Assembly: GCA_963818965.1 (NCBI GenBank)
Contig: CAWFUG010000009.1
Location: 416,001-480,000, forward strand
From: an uncultured Verrucomicrobiae bacterium
GTDB lineage: Bacteria; Chlamydiota; Chlamydiia; Chlamydiales; Rhabdochlamydiaceae
Direction: 5' to 3'
Length of the DNA stretch: 64,000 nt
Shown here: positions 7,946-53,508 of the stretch, piece by piece
Numbering within the stretch: the first letter of the stretch is position 1
Layout of the letters: each line of letters begins with the position of its first letter
Program-made: the position numbers and the translations under genes
The notes under the pieces: generated by a model
What the model was told of the DNA's origin: nothing
What the model saw: only the letters and a program-made list of their open reading frames with translations
Databases searched by the model: none

Positions 7946-8455
7946 ATGAGAAAGTTAATTTTGTTTTTGTTGGGGATTTGCTCTGTCTGGACGGCTCCTA
8001 TTTTGGCTGCAAGTGCTCCTCAAGCGCCTAAGGCACTAGAGCGCACATTTGCGATGATCAAGCCAGAGGCGGTTCAGAGCAACAAGAGTGGCCATATCAT
8101 CGCGCGGATCGAGACGGAAGGGCTCTCTGTTGTGGCGATAAAAATGGTTTCCCTTTCCAAAGCAGAAGCGGGTAAATTTTACGACGTCCATAAAGGGCGC
8201 CCCTTTTACCAAGAGCTCGTCGACTACATCTCCTCAGGTCCCGTCATCGTTATGGTCATCGAAGGAGAAAATGCCGTAGAGGGGTATCGCAAACTGATGG
8301 GATCTACCGATCCTAGAAAAGCGCCTCCGGGCACTTTGCGCGGCGACTTTGGAACCAACATCCAAAAAAATGCCGTCCATGGCTCGGATTCGGGAGAAAA
8401 CGCAGATAAAGAAGTCGCTTTTTTCTTTGCTGAAGAACAGATTTATAAGCGTTAA
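7946..8455 (+). CDS. ndk: Nucleoside diphosphate kinase with N-terminal signal-peptide-like extension
   Basis: ERTFAMIKPEAV, GTLRGDFG, NAVHGSDS (catalytic His); about 30 extra N-terminal residues MRKLILFLLGICSVWTAPILAA. Confidence 0.92.
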   Translation: MRKLILFLLGICSVWTAPILAASAPQAPKALERTFAMIKPEAVQSNKSGHIIARIETEGLSVVAIKMVSLSKAEAGKFYDVHKGRPFYQELVDYISSGPVIVMVIEGENAVEGYRKLMGSTDPRKAPPGTLRGDFGTNIQKNAVHGSDSGENADKEVAFFFAEEQIYKR

Positions 8456-8460
8456 AACTA

Positions 8461-8502
8461 TTCATTTTATATCCAAGTAATATTACTTGGATGTAAAATG
8501 AA
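8461..8502. repeat. Near-perfect 42-bp palindrome downstream of ndk (possible terminator)
   Basis: TTCATTTTATATCCAAGTAAT|ATTACTTGGATGTAAAATGAA, one T.G mismatch. Confidence 0.6.
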
Positions 8503-8524
8503 AAAAAAAGTGATGTGAAAAAGT

Positions 8525-9163
8525 ATGCAAGTACCATTTGGCGAACTCGTTCATTATTTCTTTTCGCTTTTCTTTATTTGCAGCCCCTTTTCTGCACTTT
8601 CTGCTTATTTAACCCTTACCCAAGACCTTCCTCTAGAAGAGAAAAAGCGGACGGGAATCTTGGCAGGGGTTGCAGTCGGAGTGATTCTCGTCTTAATGAC
8701 CTGGATCGGCGCCGGATTCCTCTCTGTCTTGGGGATCTCATTGCCCTCGTTTCAGCTAGCGGGAGGAGCGATCGTATTTCTACTCGCTCTATCGATGCTA
8801 AATGCGGAAACGAGCCCGATGAAACAATCGCGCGAGGACCGCAAAGATGCGATGCAAAAGCAATCGATTGCCATCGTTCCTCTCGCCATTCCCCTCATGG
8901 CAGGTCCCGGAGGGATAAGCGCTGTCATCTTCACCGTTAGCAGCCACCCCGGCATCGTCAACCAGATCTATTTCAGCATCTGTGCACTCCTCGTCGCCTT
9001 TATTGCAGGCCTCATCCTCTATACCGCTACCCACCTCGAGCGGATGATCGGCGTGACAGGCATTAACATCGTCAACCGCATCGGCGGTCTTATCCTAGCG
9101 GCCATCGCCGTCGAGACCATGGCCAAGGGGGCCACTGGTCTGTTCCCTGGGCTGTTGCATTAG
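8525..9163 (+). CDS. MarC family inner-membrane protein
   Basis: GISLPSFQLAGG, IVPLAIPLMAGPGGIS and RIGGLILAAIAVE motifs. Confidence 0.9.
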   Translation: MQVPFGELVHYFFSLFFICSPFSALSAYLTLTQDLPLEEKKRTGILAGVAVGVILVLMTWIGAGFLSVLGISLPSFQLAGGAIVFLLALSMLNAETSPMKQSREDRKDAMQKQSIAIVPLAIPLMAGPGGISAVIFTVSSHPGIVNQIYFSICALLVAFIAGLILYTATHLERMIGVTGINIVNRIGGLILAAIAVETMAKGATGLFPGLLH

Positions 9164-9176
9164 AAGCTCTAGAACC

Positions 9177-9211
9177 GATATACCCAACTTTTGAGTCTAC
9201 TTGGGTATATC
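9177..9211. repeat. Repeat family B (TATACCCAAGTGGACTCAAAAGT-type) copy
   Basis: GATATACCCAACTTTTGAGTCTACTTGGGTATATC; related copies at about 7872, 10915, 15630, 15810, 18904 and 60021. Confidence 0.8.
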
Positions 9212-9385: not shown

Positions 9386-9862
9386 ATGTTTTTTATGAGT
9401 CCATTTTTATTCACTTATCAGATTTATCCAGTTCTTAATGCCTCTCGTAGTTCTTCAGTTCCTAATACCCCTAACCAGAACGAATTGAGCGAGGCTAAGT
9501 ATATCCAGCTCTATGCGAGGATCCCTAGCTCGACACTGACAAGTAGCTCTGAGATGACATGCAGCTCTGTTTGGAGCGAGCCCTTTGATGAAATCAGACC
9601 TTTTGAGAAGGATGCTATCAGTGCAGAGAATGAGGTTCATGGAAATTCAGAAGCCGCTTTTGAGGATAGTGGAGAAGGAGCTAGCAGCCTACCTGAAGGA
9701 AAAGAAAGGGGTTCCACGAAAGGGTACATTGCCAACGATTCAATGGAGAGTTCTGAGTGTCGTCGACTGACGATTTCAGAGGAAGTGGCTCTGATGAAGG
9801 AGACTCAATTGTTAAAGCATACGTTGTATATCTGGAATAAGACTTTAACTAACTCGAAATGA
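9386..9862 (+). CDS. Ser/Glu-rich hypothetical protein, candidate secreted effector (paralog 1)
   Basis: Low-complexity ORF after an AT-rich upstream region; shares a 41-aa block with 10142..10807. Confidence 0.6.
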   Translation: MFFMSPFLFTYQIYPVLNASRSSSVPNTPNQNELSEAKYIQLYARIPSSTLTSSSEMTCSSVWSEPFDEIRPFEKDAISAENEVHGNSEAAFEDSGEGASSLPEGKERGSTKGYIANDSMESSECRRLTISEEVALMKETQLLKHTLYIWNKTLTNSK

Positions 9863-9949
9863 GGGCAAAAGGGCTGTGTCAGGGTGGGCTAGGACCTAGA
9901 TTTTCCTCCGCCCACGACAAAAAATCGTCGTTCGAGGCAAATCGGGAAG

Positions 9950-10141: not shown

Positions 10142-10807
10142 TTGTTTATGTCTTTGTGTTTAGGTTTAGGGCATAGTGCGGGAGAGCTGAATTCTGTTCC
10201 ATTACCCGGGCTAGCTCAATCGCGTTGGATGAAGTTCTGTGAAGAAAACCATATATTTAGTGGTTTTGAAGTAGGGAATAAATCGACAGAGGAAAAATCT
10301 GCTAGAGTGTATGCAAGCACAGATAAATCGACATCTACTAGTAGCTCTGGATTTGTGATTATCGAGAGACCCCAATTGTGTGATTCTCATTACGAGGCCC
10401 CTTGTCCATCCAGGGAATCGAGTCTTTCAAAGGAATTGAGCGAGGCTAAATATATCCAACTCTATGCGAGGATCCCTAGCTCGACACTGGCAAGTAGCTC
10501 TGAGATGACATGCAGTTCTGTCTGGAGCGAGCCCTTTGATGAAATCAGACCTTTTCAGACGATCAGTACAGAGAGTGAAGTTTCTTTAGGATATATTCCA
10601 GATGATGCGGGGGAAGAACCTGAGGATGTAAAACAAGAAGCTTCTGAAGTAGGTTATTCTCCCACTGATGCGGGGGAGATTTCTAGGTATTCTCCACCCA
10701 CCCTCGCAGAAGAATATGATCTCCGAATTCAGGCGCAATTTTTACAGCATGCATCGCCTTTGTGGGGTCAGCCCTTAAATACCTGGCAAATCCCCATCGC
10801 ATTCTAG
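10142..10807 (+). CDS. Ser/Glu-rich hypothetical protein, candidate secreted effector (paralog 2)
   Basis: Shares ELSEAKYIQLYARIPSSTL.SSSEMTCSSVWSEPFDEIRPF with the upstream ORF. The true start may be ATG 10148. Confidence 0.6.
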   Translation: MFMSLCLGLGHSAGELNSVPLPGLAQSRWMKFCEENHIFSGFEVGNKSTEEKSARVYASTDKSTSTSSSGFVIIERPQLCDSHYEAPCPSRESSLSKELSEAKYIQLYARIPSSTLASSSEMTCSSVWSEPFDEIRPFQTISTESEVSLGYIPDDAGEEPEDVKQEASEVGYSPTDAGEISRYSPPTLAEEYDLRIQAQFLQHASPLWGQPLNTWQIPIAF

Positions 10808-11057: not shown

Positions 11058-11061
11058 GCTT

Positions 11062-12066
11062 TTAATCGGTTTGCTTGTGGTTACGATTGAGGTGGAAGGG
11101 GTATATATCCCGTATTCGCTCTGTAACAGCCTCTTCGAGATAAGGGAGGAGCTCAGGGTATTCTTTTTGAAGCCATCTTTTCAGTTCCAATGTCCCATAG
11201 AAGAGCTCCTGTCTATAGACGAAGGGCTCGCGCATTCTCTCATTTTCCAGGAAGGAGCCCGAATCGATTTCGACTGCTTGGGTGCCGATGAATCCCAAAT
11301 TGCGATCGACGATATCCCGATCGGCAAATCCCTTCGTGCAGCGCACGAGGATCAATTGGAGCAGGGAGTCGATGCACTCCTTTGCAGCTGCGTGGTTTTC
11401 CTCCTGTTTCAAGGCGGCGAGGTGTGTTTCGATCGGGACTGCCTTTTTTTGGAGGAAAAACTTGGCAGTATCGAGATCGATCGTATGAGCGATACCACAG
11501 CTATCGTAGAGGTTAAGGCTCCGCTGGAGGTGCTCTGTCGGGTTAAGGTGAAGATAGAGAAGCCCTGCTTCCTCTTTTAGCTGAGTATAGGCCAGTTTGA
11601 GGCTCGTGAAGGTCCGCAGCAGCCGGTATTCGCGCATGCCAAACAGGCGCTTGAGCGCTTTATCGAAAAAAGAGTGACTCTCCCCCTTCGCGTAGGAGAG
11701 ATCGGAAAGAGTCCCCGCATAGCTACTGTAATCTTCTAGAAAGATCCCCCGATGGATGTAGACAGGTCGTAACAGGTCCAACTTGAAGAATTTGATGACC
11801 GTCGATTCATCTGCGCTCAAAAAGGCGAAGCATTCGCTGCCAGCTCCCAAAAAGGTGTAGCTTTGCGAGAGGAGCGCATCGACTGCTTTTTCCGTTTCTG
11901 CAGAAAGAGGCGGGGTTTGCCAGTCAGAGTGGAAAGGAAGGTCTTGCGCGCGGATCCTCTCGATACAAAAGCCGCGGGTTTGCCGTTCGATGAGTTGCTG
12001 TAACCCTAAAAACAACCCGATAGCGCAACAGAATTTAAAAAAAGTTTTCACAAAACGTTGAATCAT
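11062..12066 (-). CDS. Membrane-anchored kinase-like protein, paralog 5 of 5
   Basis: N-terminal hydrophobic anchor; LGAGSECFAF, VIKFF, KGFADRDIVDRN, IDSG. Start ATG 12066. Confidence 0.7.
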   Translation of the reverse strand: MIQRFVKTFFKFCCAIGLFLGLQQLIERQTRGFCIERIRAQDLPFHSDWQTPPLSAETEKAVDALLSQSYTFLGAGSECFAFLSADESTVIKFFKLDLLRPVYIHRGIFLEDYSSYAGTLSDLSYAKGESHSFFDKALKRLFGMREYRLLRTFTSLKLAYTQLKEEAGLLYLHLNPTEHLQRSLNLYDSCGIAHTIDLDTAKFFLQKKAVPIETHLAALKQEENHAAAKECIDSLLQLILVRCTKGFADRDIVDRNLGFIGTQAVEIDSGSFLENERMREPFVYRQELFYGTLELKRWLQKEYPELLPYLEEAVTERIRDIYPFHLNRNHKQTD

Positions 12067-12958
12067 CCTCACATGATAATCGCTCCTGCAATTCTCGATC
12101 AAGAGGGGGGATGAGAGAGGGCGCATTTTTTGTCAGCCAAAATTTTAAGCTGGCAAAGACGCGTTCGCTCTCTTTTTGTCGGTACTGTTGGGAGCAGACT
12201 GCCCCGTCCTTCGAGAGGGGGCCGATGTCGATTTGGATTGCTTTCCCCTCGAGGAAGCCATAATTGGTGCGGATCAGGGGGTCGTTGTCTGCAATGCCGT
12301 GCCCGTACTTCCAAAAGAAGAGATCGAGCAGGGAAGACAGCGCCTGGCTCGCCTCAGATGTCTTCCCCTCATCGATCATTTTTTTGAGCGCCGGATAGGC
12401 GAGCTCGACCTTTTTTTGGATGACGAACCCGATCCCATTCAGATCGATCGGATGCGCGATATTGAGCCGATCGATGAGGAAGAGGGGAGCGGGGAGTTCT
12501 GCGCCTTTTTGCAGATGTACGTAGAGCAGCGCTGTCTGCTCCTGCATCTCCTCAAAAGCGATCGCGTAGCTCGTGAATGTCCGCTGGAGCTTCTGCTCGA
12601 AGAAGTTCCGTTTTGCCTCTGCCCATGTGTTTAAAAAGGGGAAGTGGGAAAAGAATCTAAAGAGGGAAATTTTAGAGGGATAGGCGTTATTGAAGATCTT
12701 GAGGACATATTCTCCATCTTCAGAGAGAAACGCAAAGCTCTGTTTCCCCCGCCCGAAGTAGCGGAATTTTTGCTGCAGAAGCGAAAGTGGCGCGTGAGGT
12801 GTTTGAGGTAGGAGAGCCTCTGAGGTTTTTTTGGGGGGTAAGTTATCTCTGATTTTCCACAGCGCAAACCCTTTGGTCTCGTGGTGGCAAAAGCGGGCCG
12901 TTCCATAACAGAGGAGCGGGATGAGGAGGAGGGTAAGTATTCTAGACTTTAGCATCAT
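12035..12958 (-). CDS. Membrane-anchored kinase-like protein, paralog 4 of 5
   Basis: FGRGKQSFAF, VLKIF, HGIADNDPLIRTN, IDIG. Confidence 0.7.
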   Translation of the reverse strand: MMLKSRILTLLLIPLLCYGTARFCHHETKGFALWKIRDNLPPKKTSEALLPQTPHAPLSLLQQKFRYFGRGKQSFAFLSEDGEYVLKIFNNAYPSKISLFRFFSHFPFLNTWAEAKRNFFEQKLQRTFTSYAIAFEEMQEQTALLYVHLQKGAELPAPLFLIDRLNIAHPIDLNGIGFVIQKKVELAYPALKKMIDEGKTSEASQALSSLLDLFFWKYGHGIADNDPLIRTNYGFLEGKAIQIDIGPLSKDGAVCSQQYRQKESERVFASLKFWLTKNAPSLIPPLDRELQERLSCEDDSTFCENFF

Positions 12959-13070: not shown

Positions 13071-13934
13071 TCATGCATAAATTTTCATCTCTTCATCGAG
13101 AAGATCTACGAGTTCAGGGTGACACTCTTCTAACCAGTGGCGGAAGCGTTTCATGATCAGGCGGAGATCTTCTCGGTAGACGTCGGGGTTTTTGCGCTGA
13201 TCGTCCCTCACAAAACGCCCCACGTCGATGAAGATCGGCGCTTCTTCGATAAATCCCAAATTGCGATGGATCTTCGGATCCTCGTCGAAAATCCCCTTTT
13301 CACAGCGGGAGACGATCCCTTTTAAGATGGCGGCAAATCCTGCGCGGAGCTTAGTGAGATTTTGTTCTTCTACGAGGGTGTCGATGTAATCATAAGCCAA
13401 GATCGCTCTTTTTTGCAGGACGAATTCGACATCATTAAGGGGGATCTCATGGGAGATGCCGAGTTTATCGATGATATGGGCCGTGAGATCGAGGGGCACA
13501 TCTTTGTTGAGGTGGATGTAGAGCAGACCCGATTCCTCTTTTAGCTCTTCGTAGGCGAGTTTGTAGCTCGTGAAATCGCGGCGCATTTTAAGGAGTGATT
13601 TCTGCAATTTCTTTTCAGAGAGATAGGGGTAAAGGTAAGAGTAGGGCTTGCGGAAGCGGTGTTTGAAGAATTTAATCACGTAGCGTTCATCATGTGAGGC
13701 AAAGGCGAAGGCTTGACCCCCACAGGCTAAATAGTGAAAGGGTTGGGAGAGGATCTCTCGGAGCTGTTCTCTTTGTGCGGTTTCGATCGGCTCTATTTCC
13801 CATTCAGGAGAAGGAGCGAATTCAGAATGGATTCTAGCGACGGAAAACCCATCGGTCTGAGCGTCGCAAAAGGTTTTAGCGAGGTAGAAGATCAGCATTA
13901 CAGCGCTTAAAAGTGTTAAAAATCTGAATTTCAT
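13071..13934 (-). CDS. Membrane-anchored kinase-like protein, paralog 3 of 5
   Basis: LACGGQAFAF, VIKFF, KGIFDEDPKIHRN, IDVG. Confidence 0.7.
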   Translation of the reverse strand: MKFRFLTLLSAVMLIFYLAKTFCDAQTDGFSVARIHSEFAPSPEWEIEPIETAQREQLREILSQPFHYLACGGQAFAFASHDERYVIKFFKHRFRKPYSYLYPYLSEKKLQKSLLKMRRDFTSYKLAYEELKEESGLLYIHLNKDVPLDLTAHIIDKLGISHEIPLNDVEFVLQKRAILAYDYIDTLVEEQNLTKLRAGFAAILKGIVSRCEKGIFDEDPKIHRNLGFIEEAPIFIDVGRFVRDDQRKNPDVYREDLRLIMKRFRHWLEECHPELVDLLDEEMKIYA

Positions 13935-14716
13935 AGGAAGCTGGCCACAGTTTGATCAAAATGTTCGAGGAGCTCTTCGTGATGGGTAGCGAGCCAGTTG
14001 CGAAAGCGGGGAGTGATCCGCGCGATCTCTTTCTTGTAATTCTCCTGGTTTTTGATCTCTTCTGAATAGACGACTCGCCCGATGTCGAAGAGGATTGGTT
14101 CCCCTGCGATAAAGCCGCAGTTCGACTGGAAGTTGGCATCCCGATTTCGGAATCCTTTTTTGAAGAGATCGACATGGAGCAAGAGGAGGCGTTCGATTCC
14201 TTCTTTGGCGAGATCTTCTCGACCTTGGCTTACCCACGCATCGATTTGATCATAAGTGAGAATGGCTCTTTTTTGCAGCAAAAAGAGATGCTCCTCTAAA
14301 TCGAGGTCAAGGGGTATTCCTTCCGGTCCGAACAGGCGCGCGGTTCGGGGCAGGGGGGTGCGTTTTAGATGGGCGTAGAGAACCCCTGTTTCTTGGGCAA
14401 AGTGTTCAGAGCAGAGCTGAAAGGCGTAAAGGACCTTGTTTTTTTGAAGTGCTGCCTTCGCTTTATTTTTCGAGAATTTGGGTTTTAAGAATTTCAAAAC
14501 AAACTGCCCATCTGCGCTGAAAAAGACATGGGATTGTCCTCCTCTGCCGAAGTAGTGATACTCTTGCGAGAGGGCCTCTTCGACAATTGCCTTTTCTCGT
14601 TCAGAGAGCTGGCCAGAAGGGGCTGTGGCGGAGATTTTTTCCACTGAAAACGAGCGGCTCTCTTGTGTCGTACAAGCGAAAAGAAGCGTCAAGCTCATCA
14701 AGAGAACGTACCACAT
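13931..14716 (-). CDS. Kinase-like putative lipoprotein, paralog 2 of 5
   Basis: Lipobox-like LLFAC; FGRGGQSHVF, VLKFL, KGFRNRDANFQSN, FDIG. Confidence 0.7.
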   Translation of the reverse strand: MWYVLLMSLTLLFACTTQESRSFSVEKISATAPSGQLSEREKAIVEEALSQEYHYFGRGGQSHVFFSADGQFVLKFLKPKFSKNKAKAALQKNKVLYAFQLCSEHFAQETGVLYAHLKRTPLPRTARLFGPEGIPLDLDLEEHLFLLQKRAILTYDQIDAWVSQGREDLAKEGIERLLLLHVDLFKKGFRNRDANFQSNCGFIAGEPILFDIGRVVYSEEIKNQENYKKEIARITPRFRNWLATHHEELLEHFDQTVASFL

Positions 14717-15610
14717 CTAAATTTCCGATTCTAATCGATGGATTTCATGCATCAGATGCTCAGAGAGGGGAGGACAGCTTTGATCGAGCCACTGGCGAAA
14801 ATGGTCTGTAGTCCGGATGATCTCATCCCGATAATTCTCTTCCGTCCCTTTTTCTTCACGGGGGCGGAACCTGCCGATATCGATTTGCAGCGGCTTTTGA
14901 CCAATGAAGCCGAAATTTGTATTGAGATCGGGATCTTTGTCGAAGATTCCCCTTTCACAGCGCACAGCGAGCAGGCGGACCAATGCAGAAATCGCTTCTT
15001 TCGCTTCGGAGATCTCTCCTTTTTGTACCAGCGCATCGATCGCAGGGTAGACCAACTGCGCCCGTTTTTGTACCAAAAATTCCATGTCATCGAGACAGAT
15101 GCGATGAGCGATATTCAGTTTATCGTAGAGGATGAGTTCTTTGTCGAGGTGCTTTGTCTTATTCAGATGCAGATAGAGCAATCCCGTCTCATCGCGCAAT
15201 TGATCATAGGCGATGACGTAACTCTGGAAGTCCTTGCGGAGCTCTTCTCTCTTCTGTAGCCATTTTCTCAATTGAAAGGCCTGTAAAAAAGGGGGGAACT
15301 GCAGCTGAGAAATCCAAAAAGGAGGGAGCAAATGGTTGAGGCGGAAAAATTTGATGACCGACTCTCCATCTTCTGAAACAAAGACGAAAGACTGCGCCCC
15401 TTTGGCCAAATAAAAATAGGGCTGATCGAGTGTTTTTAAGACGGCAGAGCACTCGTTTTCAGGAAGTAGTTCCACTTCCCAATCGGGATTAAACGGCAGG
15501 GAAGATTGGATTTTATGAGGGGAAAACCCTTCCGTTCTCTTGTAGCAAAATCGCTTGACAAGAGGCAAAGACCCTACGACGAGAAGAATGAAAAGGATGC
15601 GTCTTAACAT
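14717..15610 (-). CDS. Membrane-anchored kinase-like protein, paralog 1 of 5
   Basis: LAKGAQSFVF, VIKFF, RGIFDKDPDLNTN, IDIG. Confidence 0.7.
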   Translation of the reverse strand: MLRRILFILLVVGSLPLVKRFCYKRTEGFSPHKIQSSLPFNPDWEVELLPENECSAVLKTLDQPYFYLAKGAQSFVFVSEDGESVIKFFRLNHLLPPFWISQLQFPPFLQAFQLRKWLQKREELRKDFQSYVIAYDQLRDETGLLYLHLNKTKHLDKELILYDKLNIAHRICLDDMEFLVQKRAQLVYPAIDALVQKGEISEAKEAISALVRLLAVRCERGIFDKDPDLNTNFGFIGQKPLQIDIGRFRPREEKGTEENYRDEIIRTTDHFRQWLDQSCPPLSEHLMHEIHRLESEI

Positions 15611-15937
15611 GTGGCTACAATGTAGCCTCTATACCCAATTTAGCTCAAGAACCTATCCCTTAACTGGACTCAAAAGTCGGTGGTCCTCATCGCTAGAAAA
15701 ATAGAATCTTAAGCAAAAAATAGTAAGGTGGACCCCAATGTCTAGACAAAAAAATCAGATCATTTTGCGCGTCTTGACGCTTGCTCCAAAAACCTTACCA
15801 AAAGCTCCTTATACCCAAGTGGACTCACGAGTTGCCAGATCTTGAGCTTGGTCTGGCACAACTTTTGTTTATAGAAATTAACGAAATGTCTATAGTAGAC
15901 GCTCGCATTGATTTTTTTAACAAAAAACAGGAGTTTT

Positions 15938-18050: not shown

Positions 18051-18884
18051 TTATTTCAGCGTGATGGTGCGCTCTACGTCGTTGAAGAGGCCGGGGACGC
18101 GCTTATTTTTGGGGTCGAGTAGCTCCAAACGGATCTTGTGCATTCCCTTTTTGAGCCCGTAGATGTAGTGGGGCTGCCAAGAGGTCAACTGCCTTTGTAT
18201 ATTACCATCGATAGTCAGCCGTACCTTGTACCCATCCTTGGAGAGGGTGCAATGGGTCAGATAGAAGTCGAGCAGCACGGGCTTGGGTTTCTTTTCATTA
18301 TAGGGGATGTCCCCTTGAGGAAAATTGTAGGTGAGATAGGGAGCTGAGAGATCGACTTTCGGGTTGTCTTTCTTCTCTTGGAAATAAAAGATGCTGGCCG
18401 TGAAGGCATTTGCCGCTTTGATGCTCTCGTGGTAGGAGCGGCAGGGGTAGGCGCGGATGACGTGCATTCCCGGTTGTAGCTTGAAGGGGATTTCAAAATT
18501 AGCGGTTTGATCGAAGTAGTTTTCGATGTCATCTAGGGCGTCGAGAAAGGCCTCGCTGACGGAGAAGTAGGGCTCATTGTCGATCATGATATGGACCGAT
18601 TGCCCTTCTGGGTCATTCCAAACCTCATTCCTTCTGGGATTATCTTCTGTGTCTACCCCTAATGCGATCCCATCGACCCGGATCTGTCCTTTGATGGGGG
18701 CCGATTTTTTGAGCTCGCCGTATTTGGGAAAGAGGATTTTCGTTTCCACCGCGTTCGGATCGGGAGAGGGATCGACAGGAACGACGCGTATGCTGTGCGG
18801 ATTAGCCTGTTGTTCTTTCAGTTCTGCGGCAAAGTTTGAAGAAAAGAGCAGTGAGAAGACGGTAGTAAGTAGGCTTAGGCGCAT
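18051..18884 (-). CDS. Exported conserved hypothetical protein
   Basis: Signal peptide MRLSLLTTVFSLLFSSNFAA (start 18884, AGGAG upstream); GQSVHIMIDNEPY...PVLLDFYL motifs. The longer ORF-track start lies inside a repeat. Confidence 0.75.
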   Translation of the reverse strand: MRLSLLTTVFSLLFSSNFAAELKEQQANPHSIRVVPVDPSPDPNAVETKILFPKYGELKKSAPIKGQIRVDGIALGVDTEDNPRRNEVWNDPEGQSVHIMIDNEPYFSVSEAFLDALDDIENYFDQTANFEIPFKLQPGMHVIRAYPCRSYHESIKAANAFTASIFYFQEKKDNPKVDLSAPYLTYNFPQGDIPYNEKKPKPVLLDFYLTHCTLSKDGYKVRLTIDGNIQRQLTSWQPHYIYGLKKGMHKIRLELLDPKNKRVPGLFNDVERTITLK

Positions 18885-32574: not shown

Positions 32575-32760
32575 TCAAAATCGGATCCAATCTATAATTC
32601 CTCCTCGTAATGTAGAGGCCGAGCTATCATTGGCGCTTGTAAGCCCGGCACAGAGAATGGCACGCAAAAGGTCACGTAAGCATCGCTGGTGAGATCGTAA
32701 GATCATCCCGTTTAGGAGAATGTTGGCTTAACACCTTTTGCACATTGCACTTAACCCAAG
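32575..32760 (+). ncRNA. Putative IS110 bridge RNA (left non-coding end); boundaries approximate
   Basis: CACAGAG-AATG (32649) matches target flank plus core; TTAGGAG-AATG (32712) matches IS right end plus core; 9-bp stem 32664-72/32733-41; GATC-GTAA-GATC hairpin. Confidence 0.65.
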
Positions 32761-32768
32761 GAATTTTC

Positions 32769-37459: not shown

Positions 37460-38114
37460 GGTAAAGTGGTTTTTCTTCAAAGAAAAGCAGTTCATCAAGA
37501 AACACGCTCCCTTTTTCCTTCCGATCGAACGTTCCTTGAAGCGCGCCTACCGATTTCAGAGTCCTTTTCGCGTCAGTAAGGCCTATTTACAGAAAAAAGG
37601 GGAGCGCGACGTCCATCAGTATGGAGAGACGCCGCTGCCTGCACTCGTCACTATCGCAACGGAATGCGATCTAGGTCCTGATGATTATATCATCGATTTG
37701 GGGTGTGGTACGGGGCGTGGGGTTTTGTTTTGGGCGGAATGGCTCGGCTGTTCTGTAAAAGGCGTCGACCAGATCCCTCTTTTCATCGAAAAGGCCCGGC
37801 AAATTATACCCCGCCCGCTTGAGGATTGCGAATTTGAGCGGCATGAGAGCTCCCGCGCGACCTTTACCTGCGAAGATATCGAGCAGACAGATCTTCAGGA
37901 CGCTACCGTCATTTACCTCTATGGGACCTGTCTTCCAGAAGAGGTCATCGAACGCCTCGTTCGGCGATTCGAAACTCTAAAAAGGGGAACGAAAATCATC
38001 ACCGTGAGCTTCCCTCTCGATGCTTACTCCTCCCAGTTCCATGTTCAAAAGCAATTTTCTGTCACGTTTCCCTGGGGAGAGGGTGAAGTATACCTAACTA
38101 CAGTATGTTCTTGA
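37446..38114 (+). CDS. Class I SAM-dependent methyltransferase (DOT1-like YGE motif); start uncertain
   Basis: YGETP, IIDLGCGTG, ATVIYLYGTC, GTKIITVS. Confidence 0.8.
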   Translation: MLFLKVKWFFFKEKQFIKKHAPFFLPIERSLKRAYRFQSPFRVSKAYLQKKGERDVHQYGETPLPALVTIATECDLGPDDYIIDLGCGTGRGVLFWAEWLGCSVKGVDQIPLFIEKARQIIPRPLEDCEFERHESSRATFTCEDIEQTDLQDATVIYLYGTCLPEEVIERLVRRFETLKRGTKIITVSFPLDAYSSQFHVQKQFSVTFPWGEGEVYLTTVCS

Positions 38115-38976
38115 ACTCCGCTTGCAAGATCGCATAGGCGAGAAAGGGATCTCGGCACTGGGCTTTAATGAGCTTGCCTTTAATGAGTACTTCGATGTAG
38201 CCACGGCCTAAACCTGCTTTGAGTTCCTCTTTAGTGAAGGCGGGATTCGTCGCAATCGCTTCGGAAAACTCTCGGTAAGATTCTCCAGAGTGGTTGACTT
38301 CTCCGCAGAGGATCGGCACATCTCCCATCAATGTTCCTGCATCGGGAGCTACAGCGCCGAGCACACTGCACTTGTTGATATAATAGCCCGTCTCTTCTTC
38401 CAATTCACGCGTGGCAGCGGCTTCAATCGTCTCCCCTTCTTTGCGTTGGCCGCGGGGGAGTTCGATTTCCCAGCTGCGCGTCGCATGACGGTAGTTAACA
38501 TTGACGATGATCTTCTTGTTCGAAAGCAATGGGAGGATCGCTACTCCAGGGCTCCCTGTCATTCCACTTTTCCAGAGCAACCGATCATAAGTTCCATAGA
38601 CGCCAGAGGGGAAAATGACTGCATCTCGGATCCACATCCAGTAATTATCTTCAGCGACAATTCCGACAGAACTCCATTCCTTCGCCTCTTTTTCTGAAGC
38701 TCCTTTGGAGATGAGGCGCAGACGGGTCTGATTTTCGATTCGCTTGATCATTTCAGGGGAGGAAGCGACTTCAATTTCCCCATTTTCCCAATTGCCAAAG
38801 GGACCGAATGCCTTCGGGTGTTCTTCGAATAAGCGTAGATAGCGGGAGAGGGCTTGAGGGAGTTCCACCTTTTGTGGTTTTTCTTGAGAAGGAGCGGTTT
38901 TTGTCTTTCCATCCGCAGCAGACAAAGCGAGGGAGATACAAAGAACGGGGACGAGAACTGTCGTGATCTTCCACAT
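38098..38976 (-). CDS. Nudix hydrolase (ADP-ribose pyrophosphatase-like) with signal peptide
   Basis: Nudix box ELPRGQRKEGETIEAAATRELEEETG, YRHA; N-terminus MWKITTVLVPVLCISLALSAA. Confidence 0.85.
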   Translation of the reverse strand: MWKITTVLVPVLCISLALSAADGKTKTAPSQEKPQKVELPQALSRYLRLFEEHPKAFGPFGNWENGEIEVASSPEMIKRIENQTRLRLISKGASEKEAKEWSSVGIVAEDNYWMWIRDAVIFPSGVYGTYDRLLWKSGMTGSPGVAILPLLSNKKIIVNVNYRHATRSWEIELPRGQRKEGETIEAAATRELEEETGYYINKCSVLGAVAPDAGTLMGDVPILCGEVNHSGESYREFSEAIATNPAFTKEELKAGLGRGYIEVLIKGKLIKAQCRDPFLAYAILQAEFKNIL

Positions 38977-44460: not shown

Positions 44461-45510
44461 CTACTCCCTAAATTTTACTGGCCAGCCTTGAGCCGCCCTT
44501 TTCTTTGCCTGCTCAAAGGCCTGTACTAGATCATCCTGGAGTTCTGTCAGTCGAACGATAGCGCCATCCTGAAGGATCCATGGATCGATGCCACGAAATC
44601 TGGATCTCACCACGACATCTGCCTCCTCTAATGCGACAAAATGATAGTACTCATCAGGATGCAAGATTTTGTGCATTCTGTTTTGGATCAAACCATCTTT
44701 GCTGGCACACAATTTTTCCCAAATGGCATTATCGATCCCGAAATGGAATTCATCCCAAGAGAGGATTCCCGTTCTTAATCCTTGTAAAATGGCATCGGCA
44801 AACCAGCGAGATAAGACGTAGTTAACGGGGCTTCCCCAGCAATCTTCCGTCATGAAGAGGGAAAACAGGACTAATTTTGTAGCTAGATCCGCCCGCGTCA
44901 TGAGCCACCGTCCTTCCACAAAACGTAAGTCCTTTAGAAATTCGCGCGTTTCTTCTAGGGTGAGAAAATTTTGAAAGTAGGCGCCTTGGATATTGTAATC
45001 GATTCGGTCGGCGCAGAGATTGGGCAATGACTGTTCTAACATGATGAAATTGTTCTTTTTGGGAAGGACCTGCTCTATTGTGAATCCATATTTATGTAAA
45101 ATTTTCTCCACGCCAGAGGTCGCCAAATACAGTCTTTGGATGGTCGTTTGGTAATCATTTTCTTGGTATTCCTTATTGAAAACCCAGTCTCCTACATGGG
45201 AAAATACAGTATGAGAGACATCGTGTAAGAGTCCAGAGATCTGCTCTTCCAGAGAAGCCCCATAGAACCTCAGGATCGCAAAAACACCCAGCGAGTGGTC
45301 GAACCGATTATACTCCTCGCGATGCGTCGTATAGTAAGCGATCCCATATTGGTGAATTTCTTTGAGCCTTTGCATAGCAGGACAGTGGATCAATTCGAGG
45401 AGGACAGGCTCCTCGACGTCAAGCGGGCCATAAAAGGTCTCGATTTTTTCAGCGAACAGATTGAGCGTTAGGCAGAGAAAGAAAAGTAAGCAGCGCGATA
45501 GAAAAAGCAT
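44461..45510 (-). CDS. HD-domain phosphohydrolase (dNTPase/SAMHD1-like motifs) with signal peptide
   Basis: QRLKEIHQYG, RFDHSLGV, LLHDVSHTVFSH, ADRIDY. Confidence 0.88.
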   Translation of the reverse strand: MLFLSRCLLFFLCLTLNLFAEKIETFYGPLDVEEPVLLELIHCPAMQRLKEIHQYGIAYYTTHREEYNRFDHSLGVFAILRFYGASLEEQISGLLHDVSHTVFSHVGDWVFNKEYQENDYQTTIQRLYLATSGVEKILHKYGFTIEQVLPKKNNFIMLEQSLPNLCADRIDYNIQGAYFQNFLTLEETREFLKDLRFVEGRWLMTRADLATKLVLFSLFMTEDCWGSPVNYVLSRWFADAILQGLRTGILSWDEFHFGIDNAIWEKLCASKDGLIQNRMHKILHPDEYYHFVALEEADVVVRSRFRGIDPWILQDGAIVRLTELQDDLVQAFEQAKKRAAQGWPVKFRE

Positions 45511-47404: not shown

Positions 47405-48196
47405 ATGAAGCGGGTTTTTTGTTTTTTGCTGTGTAGTGTTTTTTCTGTTTCGCTGTTAATGGGGCGGACAGTGGATTTAGCGGACTATGAAAAGAGGGTC
47501 TTCAGCCAAAATGGCGAAGATGGAGTTTTGGATGCTATATTCAATATCATAGGAGAGACAAATCGCTACTATGTCGAGTTTGGAACGCAAAATGCCTATG
47601 AGTGTAATACGAGATACCTCAGGGAACGGCAGAACTGGCATGGTCTATTGATGGATGGGGGATATGAGGATCCAAAGATCAATTTGCAGCAAGAATTCAT
47701 CACAGCCGAGAACATCACTTCCTTATTTCAGAAACACAAAGTGCCTGAGCAGTTCGACCTTCTCTCTATAGACATTGATTTTAATGATTGGCATGTGTGG
47801 CATGCCATTAATCCTTCTTACCAACCCCGAGTCGTCGTTGTCGAATATAATGCGAGCCATCTTCCCTACGAAGATCGGGTCAGTATGTATGAACCCTATG
47901 GATGCTGGGATGGAACGAACTACTATGGGGGAAGCATTTTAGCATTTTATAATTTAGGTCGCGCTAAGGGGTATTCCTTAGTGTATGCAGAAGCTAGAGG
48001 CGTGAACCTTTTCTTTATTCGCAATGATGTCATCGAAGACTGCAAGGCGAGGGGAATTGAGTTTCGCTCGATCAATGAAGTGAATGAAATTTACCACTTG
48101 CCCACCTACGGTTGGGGCCCCATGGGAGGGCATACGGACGATCATTTAAAACGGATCTATATCGACTCCGCTACGTTGCTCGGCCTATCCAATTGA
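47405..48196 (+). CDS. FkbM-like methyltransferase with signal peptide
   Basis: FSQNGEDG, YVEFG, LLSIDIDFND, PRVVVVEYN. Confidence 0.7.
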   Translation: MKRVFCFLLCSVFSVSLLMGRTVDLADYEKRVFSQNGEDGVLDAIFNIIGETNRYYVEFGTQNAYECNTRYLRERQNWHGLLMDGGYEDPKINLQQEFITAENITSLFQKHKVPEQFDLLSIDIDFNDWHVWHAINPSYQPRVVVVEYNASHLPYEDRVSMYEPYGCWDGTNYYGGSILAFYNLGRAKGYSLVYAEARGVNLFFIRNDVIEDCKARGIEFRSINEVNEIYHLPTYGWGPMGGHTDDHLKRIYIDSATLLGLSN

Positions 48197-48313: not shown

Positions 48314-48967
48314 ATGATTCGCGCTGTTTTGCTGTTTTGTCTCTTATCGGTATCCGCTTTTGCCAAACCGACCCTTTTTGTGGGGATTGCAGGGGGGACA
48401 GGTTCTGGAAAAACCACACTGGCAGAAAAAATTCATGAGGCATTTCCAGCAGCTGTGCTGATCAGCCAAGACTCTTATTATAAAGATCAAAGCCATCTAC
48501 CCATCGAAGAGCGAGAAAAGACGAATTTCGATCACCCCAATTCCTTGGAATTTTCTCTCTTGAAACAACACTTGATCGACTTGAAAAAGGGTCTGGCGAT
48601 TGAACAACCGATCTACAGTTTTCATACTCATACCCGAGAAGAGGGATCAAAGCGGGTGGAGCCTGTGGAAATCGTCCTAATCGAGGGGATTTTGCTCTTG
48701 GCTGTCCCAGAAATTAGAGATCTCTTGGACATCAAAATTTTCGTCGATACAGATGATGATATTCGTATCTTGCGTCGCATTGAGCGCGATATGAAAGAGC
48801 GCTCTCGCGATTTCGAAAGTATCAGAGAGCAGTATTTAAAGACTGTAAAGCCGATGCACGATGCCTTTGTAGAGCCGAGCAAAAAATATGCCGACGTGAT
48901 TGTCCCCAATGGAGGACGCAATAAGGTCGCAATCGGCCTCATCTTAGCTAAGCTCAATGAGCAGTGA
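48314..48967 (+). CDS. udk: Uridine kinase with signal-peptide-like N-terminus
   Basis: GIAGGTGSGKTT, QDSYY, NFDHP, VKPMH..FVEPSK.YADVIVP. Confidence 0.94.
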   Translation: MIRAVLLFCLLSVSAFAKPTLFVGIAGGTGSGKTTLAEKIHEAFPAAVLISQDSYYKDQSHLPIEEREKTNFDHPNSLEFSLLKQHLIDLKKGLAIEQPIYSFHTHTREEGSKRVEPVEIVLIEGILLLAVPEIRDLLDIKIFVDTDDDIRILRRIERDMKERSRDFESIREQYLKTVKPMHDAFVEPSKKYADVIVPNGGRNKVAIGLILAKLNEQ

Positions 48968-49800
48968 GGATGCACGTAAGAACACTGCTTTTTTCAATAG
49001 CGTTATTACTTGCGAATATCGGATTTGGAGAAGAAATGCAGCCGCTACCGATGCAGGATGTCCAGTTAAACCACATTTACTTGGTAGTCGATCGAAAGAC
49101 TTATGAGAGCATCAAGAATTCTGATTTTATCCACTCTCTGGTTTGTACCTATGAGCAAAAGAACAGTGCAGATGGCGAGGTGGAGTGGGAAGGATTTTAT
49201 ATGCGCGGTAAAAAGACGTTCATCGAGCTTTTCTGCCCACAAGAGCGGTATCCTGCCATTGGGATTGCTGGAATAGGATTAGGAGTGGATGTTCGAGGAG
49301 CACTAGACCTTCTTTTGGAAAAGGTTCCTCATTTTAAAAAAGGAACCTTTAGTCGAGAGGGAAAACCCTGGTTTTCCTTTTTGACAGTCGAGGATATTTA
49401 CTTTTATGAGCACAACGCTTGTTGGGTCATGGAATATGCCCCTGAATATTTTCCAGAAGAACCTGCGGATGTTTCCCGAGTGCGTTATAATGCGGACAGA
49501 TATGACCCTAACAAGCCTTTCTTGGACATCGATGGTTTTTCCATCGCTCTTAAACCAGAGGGACTTGAGCTCCTTTCTTCCTGTCTTAACAATTTTGGAC
49601 TGAAAGCAGCGGATGGGTCTTATGAAACGTCTGAAAAAATAGAGATCAGGCTATCTGAAGAAAGCTGTGAGCAAAAAGGGATCTATCAGATCGATTTTTC
49701 TCTGAGAGATGCTTGCCTAGATGGGTATTCTGGTCGTTTAGGGAATTCCTTGCTAACCATTCGAGGGGACAGGGCGAGCTGGATCTTTTTTGGGCAGTAG
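48964..49800 (+). CDS. Exported protein, VOC/glyoxalase-like (DUF5829-like)
   Basis: Signal peptide; LNHIYLVVD..TY..I, W.GFY.RG.KTFIELF. Confidence 0.6.
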   Translation: MRMHVRTLLFSIALLLANIGFGEEMQPLPMQDVQLNHIYLVVDRKTYESIKNSDFIHSLVCTYEQKNSADGEVEWEGFYMRGKKTFIELFCPQERYPAIGIAGIGLGVDVRGALDLLLEKVPHFKKGTFSREGKPWFSFLTVEDIYFYEHNACWVMEYAPEYFPEEPADVSRVRYNADRYDPNKPFLDIDGFSIALKPEGLELLSSCLNNFGLKAADGSYETSEKIEIRLSEESCEQKGIYQIDFSLRDACLDGYSGRLGNSLLTIRGDRASWIFFGQ

Positions 49801-50036: not shown

Positions 50037-51522
50037 ATGCTGCCGACAGAAAATAGGCTTTGTTTAATTCCTGGTCAAACATTCGATGAGGTATTGGGGA
50101 CTCTCGGCTCATTGATCGAAGCTTCTCTTGAAAGAGAAAATTGCGAGGAGATTGAAAATTATGTTCAGCGGTTTCTGCGCACTTCTGGAAGATCCTGATG
50201 CAGATATGCTGGATTTATCCTATCGAGGGATAAATGAGGGGATAAGGAAACTACCCCTTGAGCTGTTTAATATCCCTAACATTGAGAAAATTACATCCCT
50301 CGACCTGTCTCACAACGAATTAACAACGCTACCCACTGAGATCGGGAATTTAAAAAATTTGGTTATGTTTTACTTGTGTGGGAACCGGCTTAAAGCGCTA
50401 CCCAGCGAGATCGGAAAATTAAGTAATTTGGTCACGCTATTCTTGTCTCAAAATCAGCTGAAAGAGCTACCAAACGAATTGTGGAAGCTAAATAATTTGC
50501 GTGTGCTCTCCCTGGCCGGTAATTCGTTAACAGTGTTGCCAACAGATGTGAATAATCTAGGCAATTTAGAGGTGCTCTATTTATTCCAAAATAGAGCAAC
50601 ACGGCTACCCCTTACCAAGTCTTGTGATACATCTGAGGATCTATCGACAGCGCTCGCTTTATGGGATGCTCCCCGTACAAGCGATTATCAGAAAATTGAG
50701 CGTCGCGTGCATGCACTTCTGGAAAATGCAGCTGAAAATAAACTGAATTTAAAAGGCGCAACATTAAGAGAGATACCTCCTAAGTTATTTAGCCTCTCTC
50801 AGCTCATTGAGCAAGTCACCATTCTCGATTTATCTAATAATAAACTAGCATGGATCCCAAGCGAGATCGGAAATCTCGTCCATTTGACTAAACTTTGTCT
50901 GAGGAAAAATAAGATAGCAGAACTCCCCAGAGAGCTCGGCAATCTAAGCAAATTGACTTGTATTGAAATAGACAACAATCCACTCGTAGAAGAGATCAAA
51001 GAGATCTGTTTAAACAGTTTTACCAAGTTATATCAAAAAGATGATCCGCTAATAGTGCTGCCGAATGGAATCTGGTTAAAATTACTTGCAAAAAACAACA
51101 AATGGATGAAAATAGAGCTCGGTAGCATAAAGGCTATGAAAGAATACCATGTTATTTGCTACACCCGCTTACCCAATCCTAAAATAAATCTACGAGGTGG
51201 CGTAACATTGCCACTAGTAGCGATCTCAGATCTGAGCTCTTTGGCTAAAGTTTATTGGTCGGAAAACCCACTCACAATGTTATCTGTCCAGCCCTGGATG
51301 CACCTACTTAAACGGTACTCGAAATACAAAATGGTTAAAGACGCAGTTGGTGGTCAGTGGGCTTTAAAAAAATACCACGTTGCTTTTCAGACTGCTTTGG
51401 AAATCTTCCCACAGGCAAGGGAACTCATGCCATTCTATCTTCCCTATGGTCTTAAGTGTACCCGTACCCAATTTACTGACTCAAGTTCCAGTTCAGATTC
51501 CAGCGATTCTTCCTCAGATTAG
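50037..51522 (+). CDS. Leucine-rich repeat protein; +1 frameshift near 50175
   Basis: LP.EIGNL.NL..L.L..N repeats. A frame from ATG 50037 (GAGG upstream) supplies an N-cap resembling the internal second module. Confidence 0.75.
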
Positions 51523-51538
51523 AGCGAATCCTAACGCT

Positions 51539-51949
51539 CTAATCTCGCAGGCTAATTACGATGCGGTTTAGAGCGTTCATGATCGCAATGCATGCTGTTA
51601 AATCAACGATTTCTCTTTCAGAATAGATTTGAGTTAGCTGTTCCCTAATTTTGCTTAAATCTTGGTTTAGATCAGTAATAGCTTCTGCCCATTGGAGAAC
51701 GATTTTTTCCTCTGAGGTGAAAGCGGTTGAGTTGTGCCATGCGGGAAGGAGGTCGAGTTTTTCTTGTTGTATCCCGAGCTTTCGCGCTTCATCCGTATGG
51801 AGACGACAACAATAAGCGCATCCGTTGATTTGTGAAACGCGCAATTCGGCCAAAATTCGAATGGTCGGACTTAGAGTGGATTTGTTTAAGCTGGCGCGGC
51901 TTTGGTACAAGAAGCTAATCGTTTCCTTGGAAATTTCAGCGTAATTCAT
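51539..51949 (-). CDS. Carboxymuconolactone decarboxylase / AhpD family protein
   Basis: LRVSQINGCAYC..LH, MNALNRI. Confidence 0.9.
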   Translation of the reverse strand: MNYAEISKETISFLYQSRASLNKSTLSPTIRILAELRVSQINGCAYCCRLHTDEARKLGIQQEKLDLLPAWHNSTAFTSEEKIVLQWAEAITDLNQDLSKIREQLTQIYSEREIVDLTACIAIMNALNRIVISLRD

Positions 51950-52000
51950 AGAAGAATGCCTCCAGATAAAAATTTATTATAAGAAAAAGACATTTTATAG

Positions 52001-52025
52001 AAAAGCCAGGTTTCTAAACCTGGCT
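52001..52025 (-). terminator. Intrinsic terminator after kynureninase
   Basis: AGCCAGGTTT-CT-AAACCTGGCT hairpin followed by TTT on the minus strand. Confidence 0.65.
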
Positions 52026-52041
52026 CGAATACATCTAAGGA

Positions 52042-53508
52042 TCAGTTGCAAATCTCCTTTAATGCGGCAGCAAAGTCTTCAACTTCTTGAAAGCTGATAT
52101 AGAGTGGATGAGGCATGACCCGGATATTTGCAGGGGGCCGTACATCGACGGAAAAGCCGCGGCGATTGAGTTCTTCCTCAATTTCTGCTGCTTGTCTGTT
52201 TGTATCTAGCTTGAACACCAACATAGCACCCCGCTCTTCAGGACTTAAGGGGGTGATCCATTCGATGGAATTCCCCAGGTGTTCTTTTAATTGTTTTATG
52301 AGGAATGCTGTGAGCTTTTCCGACTTCTCTTCTATTTGCGCAATGCCAAGGTCGTGATAGAGCTCTAGCATTGCCTGGGCATCGGCCATGGGGATAGGAG
52401 GCGGATTTCCTAGGCGAGTTCCTCTAGCATCTTGGTAAAAAATGGTGGGATCCCAACTGTGGATCGACTGGAATACGAGGTCTGAGCGCATCGCTTTCCA
52501 ACCTTGTGCTGGGAAGTAGTCGCGGAATGGGATATTGTCTTGGTGGATGAAATATCCGCCAACACCCCCTGCAGAAGCCGTCAGATATTTGTAGCCGCAC
52601 CATGTCGCATAGTCAACCCCATCTGCAGAGAGTTGTAGGCTTCGATTACCGATCATGTGAGCTAGGTCCCAGCCGATGCGGATACCGTGTTTTTTTAATA
52701 ATCGATTGGCTTCAGCTGTATAGAATCTCTGTCCTGTTGTAAAGGGAATCGCTTCTAGATGGGCTAAAGCGATTTCATGTCCCTGTTCTTCGAGAGTCTT
52801 TTGGAGGGTTTTTAAATCATACAGGCCATTTTCATCACTTTCCAACTCTACGACAAAAGCTTTTCTAAAGGCGATTGGATCTTCCGGGAGCTCTAATTCC
52901 ACTCCATTTTGTTTGAGTAAGTGGAGCTTTTGGCGCAGTACCGACATCACCACAGCCTGATCGGAAGCAAAACTGTGCTTCATGATGAGGATTTTGTAGC
53001 GGCCTGTTTTAAAGTTAGGGATATAGAATGCTTGGATCATCAAGGTGTTGTTTACGCTCAGACTATTGCCCATGACAATTTCATTAGCGGAAGCTCCGAC
53101 CATTTGCCCAAGGGCTTCTAACGCCTTGGCATTCCGATCACAGTCGAACCAATGACGACCGCGGTCGGCAATTCCTTCAGCAGCGGGGTGGGTGGCAGCA
53201 AAATGGCCTCCGAGGATTTGTCGATCCCTCACTTGATATTCATAGAGGACTCTTTCCACTGAGCCTTGATAAGTCGGGCCTAAAGAGTGTCCCCCTAAAT
53301 GGATGAGTCCTTCAGGGATATTAAAGAGGGATTTGATCTGGGATAATGGATCTTCTCGATCGAGTTGTGAGGCAGTTACGTTTAGTTCTGTGCTCGTCAG
53401 TGCTGTGGTGCAACATAGGTAGGTTAGAAGTATCGCTATTGATTTGATCATCGTTTGCAGTGCTCCATGGTGTTTTGGTATAGGTTCAGCTACAGGTGAA
53501 GAGAGCAA
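52042..53508 (-). CDS. kynU: Kynureninase-like PLP enzyme with hydrophobic N-terminal extension
   Basis: LDREDPL, GHSLGP, WDLAHMIGN, WCGYKYL (PLP Lys), DVRPP. Confidence 0.8.
   Translation of the reverse strand: MLSSPVAEPIPKHHGALQTMIKSIAILLTYLCCTTALTSTELNVTASQLDREDPLSQIKSLFNIPEGLIHLGGHSLGPTYQGSVERVLYEYQVRDRQILGGHFAATHPAAEGIADRGRHWFDCDRNAKALEALGQMVGASANEIVMGNSLSVNNTLMIQAFYIPNFKTGRYKILIMKHSFASDQAVVMSVLRQKLHLLKQNGVELELPEDPIAFRKAFVVELESDENGLYDLKTLQKTLEEQGHEIALAHLEAIPFTTGQRFYTAEANRLLKKHGIRIGWDLAHMIGNRSLQLSADGVDYATWCGYKYLTASAGGVGGYFIHQDNIPFRDYFPAQGWKAMRSDLVFQSIHSWDPTIFYQDARGTRLGNPPPIPMADAQAMLELYHDLGIAQIEEKSEKLTAFLIKQLKEHLGNSIEWITPLSPEERGAMLVFKLDTNRQAAEIEEELNRRGFSVDVRPPANIRVMPHPLYISFQEVEDFAAALKEICN

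Follow-up and report, generated by a model that had tools for sequence, protein, structure and literature searches.

The export of metabolic enzymes by chlamydiae is a known idea, and a signal-bearing second nucleoside diphosphate kinase, Ndk2, has already been published for Waddlia chondrophila (wcw_1545); according to the main text of that paper, its 18-residue signal peptide scores 0.999 in SignalP 6 and deletion of the leader altered localisation (PMC13318545; this and the other papers are cited from excerpts). In C. trachomatis, cytosolic-type enzymes are likewise exported, to metabolise glycogen in the inclusion lumen from a host-derived activated substrate; as described there, they lack a signal peptide, leave by type III secretion and serve one pathway (Gehre et al. 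2016, PMC4829429). Among other intracellular parasites, Chromulinavorax destructans (Dependentiae) is reported to have 44% signal-bearing genes, a figure that includes membrane proteins, with HAD hydrolases among the Sec-tagged proteins and Nudix hydrolases classed as cytoplasmic (PMC6561590), and a microsporidian, a nucleotide parasite with NTT nucleotide transporters, tags a cytosolic kinase, hexokinase, for export and proposed action in the host cytosol (PMC5113988). The present analysis concerns a stretch of 64,000 nucleotides (the window; G000:C9:416001-480000) from a 2.24 Mb, 88% complete genome of the Rhabdochlamydiaceae. Eleven of its genes, encoding Ndk2, a Nudix hydrolase, an HD-domain hydrolase, a uridine/cytidine kinase (Udk), an FkbM-like protein, a kynureninase-like enzyme and five kinase-fold proteins (K1-K5), begin with a basic-hydrophobic leader, as a sequence-only reading had proposed, and each leader precedes a domain assigned by family or fold (Table 1), Pfam and NCBIfam giving the assignment for Ndk2, Nudix, HD, Udk and the kynureninase-like enzyme.

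The locus resembles these systems in kind and differs from them in route and breadth. In place of type III secretion and a single pathway, the present genome appears to use Sec for about 50 enzymes of many pathways; it belongs to another phylum than Chromulinavorax, and 278 of its 1613 called genes are soluble and leader-like before removal of false calls; the microsporidian case is a eukaryotic one and involves one enzyme. In the literature searched, which covered few subscription journals and no supplements, we found nothing on the Sec route, on the breadth of cargo, on a signal-bearing chlamydial Udk, let alone a phylum-wide one, on a signal-bearing HD hydrolase or on an anchored kinase-fold family, and the excerpts of PMC5381601, PMC8242063, PMC4333871 and PMC2878342 contain no discussion of such leaders. 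SignalP tables in genome-paper supplements or ChlamDB could already contain them.

Judged by sequence criteria, the leaders on the named enzymes are conserved export signals, and we strongly infer from them that these enzymes cross the inner membrane by Sec. All six named enzymes have a short basic n-region, an uncharged hydrophobic core and then a polar region. The proposal that most leaders end in an Ala cleavage-like site fits Ndk2, Nudix, HD and Udk, where small residues at -3/-1 are clear; the FkbM-like protein has Gly instead, the kynureninase-like enzyme is ambiguous and the kinase-fold proteins lack A-x-A. Behind the leaders, the motifs or ligands of Ndk2, Nudix, HD, Udk and the kynureninase-like enzyme are kept, in agreement with the suggestion that the catalytic domains are intact. 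Two of the starts first proposed need to be moved: the kynureninase leader runs from the ATG at 53451 and not from the TTG at 53508, and that of K1 begins at about Met21 (12066). As to true starts downstream of the leaders, the HD and kynureninase genes have no alternative in-frame start ahead of the domain and the sole alternative in udk is a TTG within the hydrophobic core; the FkbM-like gene, on the other hand, has an ATG at codon 19.

Genes were called with a home-made caller, which found 1613 in the genome and missed some in the window, and leaders were scored with two home-made tests, a rule-based scan and a logistic model. The scan was positive for 384 of the 1613 genes, 278 of which have no further membrane helices (Udk is not in this 'soluble' count), on a background of 215/3945 shadow open reading frames (ORFs) and 279/6566 internal ATGs. 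The logistic model had 40 envelope proteins from the same genome as its training positives and 4637 internal-ATG starts as its negatives; it placed all six named enzymes above every negative and at the 60th-93rd percentile of the positives; four of the five kinase-fold leaders also lay above all negatives and the fifth above 99.6% of them. This test is partly circular because its 40 positives had already passed the rule scan. Eleven Rossmann or P-loop starts, including that of CTP synthase, were removed or discounted as false calls, as were fumarase, a racemase and similar cases in which the domain begins at residue 1-12; the RpiB call is doubtful, its probable true start being Met20.

Conservation across relatives was assessed in 60 genomes of the family and in a phylum sample of 200 Chlamydiota genomes, the presence of Nudix, HD, Udk and Ndk2 being scored by single-protein queries, which can miss genes. 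Udk, which scores 250.7 against a TIGR00235 cut-off of 220.3 and whose residue at what we take to be the uridine-accepting position is His, as in human UCK2 and PDB 3w8r, where 3asy has Tyr, is single-copy in 27/60 family genomes and carries a leader in 27/27. Its closest named relatives are chlamydial, among them a Rhabdochlamydiaceae sequence and one of Ca. Acheromyda pituitae, assigned by NCBI to that family. In the phylum sample 36 of 38 relatives, in 11 families, are leader-bearing (26 of 29 new loci by rule and one more by eye), compared with none of 64 non-chlamydial homologs, after one spurious far-upstream call among the latter was relabelled. The two leaderless chlamydial sequences belong to a small-genome family (f4) and group apart in the tree, in which all 65 leader-bearing rows (11 families) fall on one side of a branch with a Shimodaira-Hasegawa-like approximate likelihood ratio (SH-aLRT) support of 93; this is a quick tree with long branches and two hand relabels (L198 to none, L342 to leader). 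The Udk leaders keep their length and character (about 20 residues, hydrophobic) while their sequence diverges. Conservation in orthologs, which the sequence-only reading had named as a check, is thus seen, and it is the strongest evidence for the leaders. As a separate observation, a yhhQ-tgt-udk run in one orientation occurs in 12/40 Udk loci (L407, L409, L415-L423, L426).

The Ndk2 of the window has a leaderless paralog at G000:C1:274503-274928, with 52% identity. Two intact ndk copies occur in 12/60 family relatives, one of them leader-bearing in 12/12, and single-copy ndk is leaderless in all 26 genomes examined (of 43). After two rows were relabelled by hand (L033 to leader, L029 to none), 13 leader-bearing rows split from 38 leaderless rows at 99/97. 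In a wider tree, which keeps both relabels and omits L044, 24 of the 38 leaderless family rows and the named Waddlia sequence, the window Ndk2 and the tandem-pair Ndk2 from four further chlamydial families share one side of a branch, with a weak SH-aLRT of 88; the tree weakly suggests an older duplication. L464 in this tree is a false leader call, and the extensions of L452 and L454 exceed the range of the rule; these two, the Ndk2 of two other families, have N-terminal extensions of more than 100 residues. The likeness to Waddlia lies in a signal-bearing second Ndk with intact HGSD beside a leaderless Ndk1, and the difference in gene order, ndk1-(pabA)-ndk2 forming an operon there whereas here ndk1 is on C1 and ndk2 on C9 beside marC. 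The excerpted paper states that ndk2 is absent from Rhabdochlamydiaceae, in contrast to the 12/60 relatives of this family that possess it, and its main text contains neither 'uridine' nor 'adenylate' (PMC13318545).

The remaining named enzymes are more unevenly distributed. Nudix occurs in 26/60 family genomes, with a leader by rule in 13/25 loci and by eye in the other 12. The HD protein is similar to 2o6i (E 3e-12) and SAMHD1 (4e-8) over its N-terminal half only and lies far under the dGTPase family cut-offs; it resembles a dNTP triphosphohydrolase and, in terms of sequence, both it and the Nudix protein resemble nucleotide-degrading enzymes. It is found in 21/60 family genomes, with a leader by rule in 20/22 loci (self included) and in 17/19 further phylum loci. 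The kynureninase-like enzyme, with an E-value of 6e-40 to human kynureninase and an NCBIfam equivalog score of 192.9, below the cut-off of 246.4, is rare in the family (2/60 genomes); its leader is called by rule in 16/23 close homologs, three of which are fragments or truncated, versus 0/48 distant ones. Since trpA and trpD were not found in the genome, it does not seem to supply tryptophan synthesis here, and a tie to tryptophan recycling was rejected. Signal peptides are absent from the nearest non-chlamydial kynureninases (P0144-P0178; several from Legionella), which are longer proteins, for the most part of about 500-530 residues. For the FkbM-like gene the codon-19 ATG is the start used by the database gene call P0192, and the upstream ATG is preceded by a GGGAG site; 78/120 homologs carry the leader, and a Criblamydia homolog is annotated 'Conserved putative secreted protein'. 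A structural model of the protein suggests a class I methyltransferase fold; the window protein has no Pfam hit and 24/77 homologs match PF05050 weakly.

The five kinase-like genes had been listed with the proposed toolkit, but they form one tandem array of a probably membrane-anchored family that has 11 copies in the genome and occurs in 142/200 Chlamydiota genomes, with 0/28 in family f4, which looks like Chlamydiaceae. In an alignment of 72 sequences the kinase catalytic positions hold Lys, Asp, Asn and D-x-G without exception; some paralogs elsewhere in the genome differ at them. The model of K3 (pLDDT 94), compared by VIA, appears closest to AceK (Z 11.6, root-mean-square deviation (rmsd) 4.2, 204 aligned); many kinases follow closely, including Bud32 (Z 10.5, rmsd 3.2, 169 aligned). 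Thus the fold and the catalytic positions are like those of the protein-kinase-like superfamily (AceK, Bud32/PRPK, RIO, eukaryotic protein kinases), no single family standing clearly above the rest, whereas the N-terminal anchor, the 11 copies and the absence of a sequence match set the present proteins apart; no match was found in Pfam, NCBIfam or PDB sequences, and no named Atlas cluster. In 110/120 homologs the hydrophobic segment is followed by Cys-x-Thr, and there is no conserved cleavage site. Because Cys-x-Thr replaces a cleavage site the proteins are probably anchored, and because basic residues precede the hydrophobic segment the kinase domain would be placed outside. Such a topology recalls that of Golgi-lumen kinases such as Fam20.

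The leaders extend well beyond the window. Outside it, a Pfam scan of 238/244 leader candidates (six close paralogs or duplicates were skipped) gave, in addition to ordinary envelope proteins and by hand count, about 45 leader-bearing enzymes of normally cytosolic or cytosolic-cofactor families. These include seven nucleotide-related enzymes (Adk, HPRT, Ppx/GppA, a RelA/SpoT-type HD protein, a 2H phosphoesterase, HAD and ATP sulfurylase), 10 related to S-adenosylmethionine (SAM), among them SpeD and SpeE, eight redox enzymes, among them TrxB-Trx and peroxiredoxin, three GNATs, 13 glycosyl- or pyruvyltransferases and four others; SpeD with SpeE, and TrxB-Trx with peroxiredoxin, are functionally linked pairs of which both members are leader-bearing. 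Of 39 that were scored, 38, including the doubtful RpiB, lie beyond the threshold set at 99% of the negatives. The check for leaderless paralogs that the sequence-only reading had suggested gave a mixed picture: they exist for Ndk, Adk, HPRT, TrxB, peroxiredoxin, SOD and carbonic anhydrase, all but the last being counted as essential enzymes that retain such a copy, but none was found in the genome for Udk (no second udk copy of either kind), the kynureninase-like enzyme, SpeE or ATP sulfurylase. Identical or near-identical leader-bearing genes recur between contigs C4, C5, C6, C7, C8 and C12, either as real repeats or through assembly duplication.

We favour, at a probability of roughly 0.55, a reading in which the whole lineage sends cofactor-dependent enzymes by Sec to the periplasm or inclusion lumen and some of them arrive in the host. 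Sec leaders, acting as uncleaved anchors in the kinase array, would put these enzymes outside the inner membrane throughout the environmental chlamydiae; there, in the periplasm or the lumen of the inclusion, they may be active along the path that host ATP and small cofactors would take towards NTTs of the inner membrane, and some may go on to the host by type II secretion, genes for which are present in the genome, or in vesicles, as is partly shown for Waddlia Ndk2. Udk, Ndk2, Adk, HPRT, HD and Nudix would be a patchy subset, not co-inherited, that tunes the nucleotide pool at the outer face of the NTTs: Udk would convert host uridine or cytidine and ATP to UMP or CMP, and Ndk2 with Adk would rebalance nucleoside tri-, di- and monophosphates and could feed ATP to the anchored kinase-fold proteins. 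In the mitochondrial intermembrane space AK2 and NME4 are coupled to the ADP/ATP carrier. The likeness of an adenylate kinase and a nucleoside diphosphate kinase at the outer face of a translocase would be one of working only, the two not being homologous as systems.

Several observations weigh against this reading. NADPH and acetyl-CoA are large for porins. Leaders are called by rule in only about half of the orthologs of HPRT (15/32) and Adk (10/22). Leaders are absent from PyrH, Cmk, Gmk, Tmk, Prs and thymidine kinase, so the exported salvage set is incomplete; by itself it cannot carry uridine to UTP, and the leaderless thymidine kinase implies that nucleosides can reach the cytoplasm, which makes a need for uridine phosphorylation outside less likely. 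In heterologous systems, moreover, Waddlia Ndk2 was described in the host nucleus and Golgi region in a signal-peptide-dependent manner (PMC13318545, main text), which fits an effector better.

An effector role for the exported enzymes is possible, although we hold it to be doubtful overall: type II secretion or vesicles would take them, once past Sec, into the host's cytosol or nucleus, where they would draw on host cofactors and reshape host metabolism, Udk boosting pyrimidine salvage, a SAMHD1-like HD protein draining dNTPs and the kynureninase removing kynurenine. Host monophosphate kinases would close the gaps of the exported set, and the apparent lack of a link between the kynureninase and tryptophan synthesis fits equally. 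HtrA, Skp, Mip and PpiB are periplasmic residents. Ndk2 was recovered from the Waddlia-infected host cytosol by mass spectrometry (PMC7143554), the same fraction containing these four signal-peptide chaperones and proteases, so that passive periplasmic release explains it, and the authors of the excerpted localisation study could not see its localisations in natural infection (PMC13318545). The microsporidian hexokinase is a precedent for a signal-bearing effector (PMC5113988), and Parachlamydia blocks giant-virus replication, presumably via effectors (PMC9457554, in part). Anchored kinase-fold proteins, however, would remain on the bacterial membrane, and for some 50 unrelated enzymes, with glycosyltransferases and redox pairs among them, a compartment is a simpler account than 50 host targets.

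The sequence-only reading had gone further, seeing in these genes a dedicated toolkit that converts host nucleosides and nucleotides into importable NTPs, and this is unlikely; as a fixed system, it is largely refuted. Its premise of a nucleotide parasite holds, since the genome has three full-length NTT/TLC transporters and one partial match and, in an 88% complete assembly, pyrF, CNT, NupG and NCS2 transporters were not found, and six nucleotide enzymes do carry leaders. Nucleotide enzymes account, however, for about 11 of 51 leader-bearing cytosolic-type enzymes (the six of the window included), the FkbM-like and kynureninase-like proteins are not nucleotide enzymes, two members look degradative and the monophosphate-kinase steps are missing. 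Across the 60 relatives, which are kin and not independent, all four of Ndk2, Udk, HD and Nudix occur together in none, 14 have none of them and all pairwise p values exceed 0.1. One clade has ndk2 and udk within 3 kb in a block with the kinase array (kinase array-marC-ndk2-yhhQ-tgt-udk-tdk), but this is confined to that clade; among 40 Udk loci tgt and yhhQ stand beside udk in 12, kinase genes in 11 and ndk in four, and in this genome ndk2, marC and the array lie together while its udk is elsewhere, outside the block, in another subclade. A fixed ndk2-udk operon was accordingly rejected. The distance from the leader-bearing Adk gene to an NTT gene is 1.6 kb, with one gene between (G000:C11:80747-84648; L108:5595-9496), but an NTT lies within about 1.5 kb of Adk in 2/30 relatives' loci, and a conserved NTT-Adk adjacency was rejected; the intervening gene, which we take from its appearance to be a sterol reductase, neighbours Adk in seven relatives' loci. 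Before the window, at G000:C9:403068-406166, a gnat-tdk-tgt-yhhQ block lacks udk, and its tgt, in two overlapping pieces, looks frameshifted.

We regard it as very unlikely that the leaders are non-functional, inward-facing anchors or start-codon artefacts, the enzymes then being cytoplasmic. The rule scan does have 4-5% false positives with clear false calls (CTP synthase, Rossmann-fold starts and probably RpiB), and the codon-19 ATG of the FkbM-like gene and internal Met residues in some Adk orthologs fit such an explanation. Against it, the HD, kynureninase and Udk genes have no downstream start that would help, an open, hydrophobic leader of about 20 residues persists over 11 families while non-chlamydial homologs lack it, and the Waddlia leader described above is a SignalP-positive one whose deletion has an effect.

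We put forward, tentatively and as a possibility that falls short of being favoured, a true extracytoplasmic compartment fed by host ATP, SAM, NADPH and sugar nucleotides, with whole mini-pathways (salvage, polyamine synthesis, thioredoxin redox and glycosylation) and near-universal anchored kinases that phosphorylate envelope substrates. If true, bacteria would have in this compartment their own equivalent of the mitochondrial intermembrane space or of the lumen of the Golgi. A further extension, in our view a long shot, is that the exported SAMHD1-like hydrolase lowers host dNTPs and so aids symbiont-mediated protection against giant viruses.

Table 1. Leader-bearing and context genes of the window (positions within the window)
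Feature	Position	Strand	Remarks
Ndk2, nucleoside diphosphate kinase	7946..8455	+	leader of the Sec type, about 22 residues; HGSD at residue 145
marC, context gene	8525..9163	+	separates ndk2 from the kinase-like array, as it does in some relatives
Kinase-fold K1	11062..12066	-	probable start Met21 of the ORF beginning at 12126; signal-anchor-like N-terminus
Kinase-fold K2	12035..12958	-	signal-anchor-like N-terminus
Kinase-fold K3	13071..13934	-	catalytic Lys, Asp, Asn and D-x-G invariant; protein-kinase-like fold in a model of pLDDT 94
Kinase-fold K4	13931..14716	-	lipobox-like Cys15
Kinase-fold K5	14717..15610	-	signal-anchor-like N-terminus
Nudix hydrolase with leader	38098..38976	-	complete Nudix box at residue 176; among solved structures closest to NudF and NUDT5 (ADP-sugar pyrophosphatases)
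HD-domain hydrolase with leader	44461..45510	-	metal ligands (H, HD and D) kept; among solved structures closest to PDB 2o6i and SAMHD1
Class I SAM-methyltransferase-fold (FkbM-like) protein with leader	47405..48196	+	alternative ATG at codon 19
Uridine/cytidine kinase (Udk)	48314..48967	+	leader of about 17 residues; intact P-loop and catalytic Asp
DUF5829 protein, also leader-bearing	48964..49800	+	overlaps the udk stop codon
Kynureninase-like pyridoxal phosphate (PLP) enzyme with leader	52042..53451	-	start ATG 53451; DLAH and PLP-lysine motifs intact

Other features of the window stand apart from these genes. Three further leader-bearing proteins, at 805-1650 (with two paralogs in the genome), 18051-18884 and 55997-56608, have no Pfam match, and the same holds for two Ser-rich ORFs at 9386-9862 and 10142-10807 that share a duplicated stretch of about 40 residues. 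An IS110 transposase at 32745-34126 is split over two frames, a DDE transposase at 42037-43044 adjoins an outer-membrane protein gene, and a Gly-rich autotransporter region at 60720-63996 is present as two ORFs, with passenger and beta-domain in separate pieces. Among the four proteins at 15908-17695, 30038-32254, 40968-41756 and 50128-51522, two are leucine-rich repeat (LRR) proteins by Pfam and two presumably have F-box-like N-termini; LRR and F-box-like proteins are typical among the host-interacting proteins of environmental chlamydiae. An Rfam scan of the window gave no match.

The periplasm is generally taken to be without ATP and similar cofactors. Reconstructions of metabolism that assign these enzymes to the cytoplasm would have to be revised, and automated gene calls can lose the leader. 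Extracytoplasmic phosphorylation in bacteria has a candidate in the kinase-fold family, and Udk, with an export signal in 11 chlamydial families and usually as the sole copy, provides a testable handle on the site at which nucleotide parasites process host metabolites and on the traffic across the inclusion membrane.

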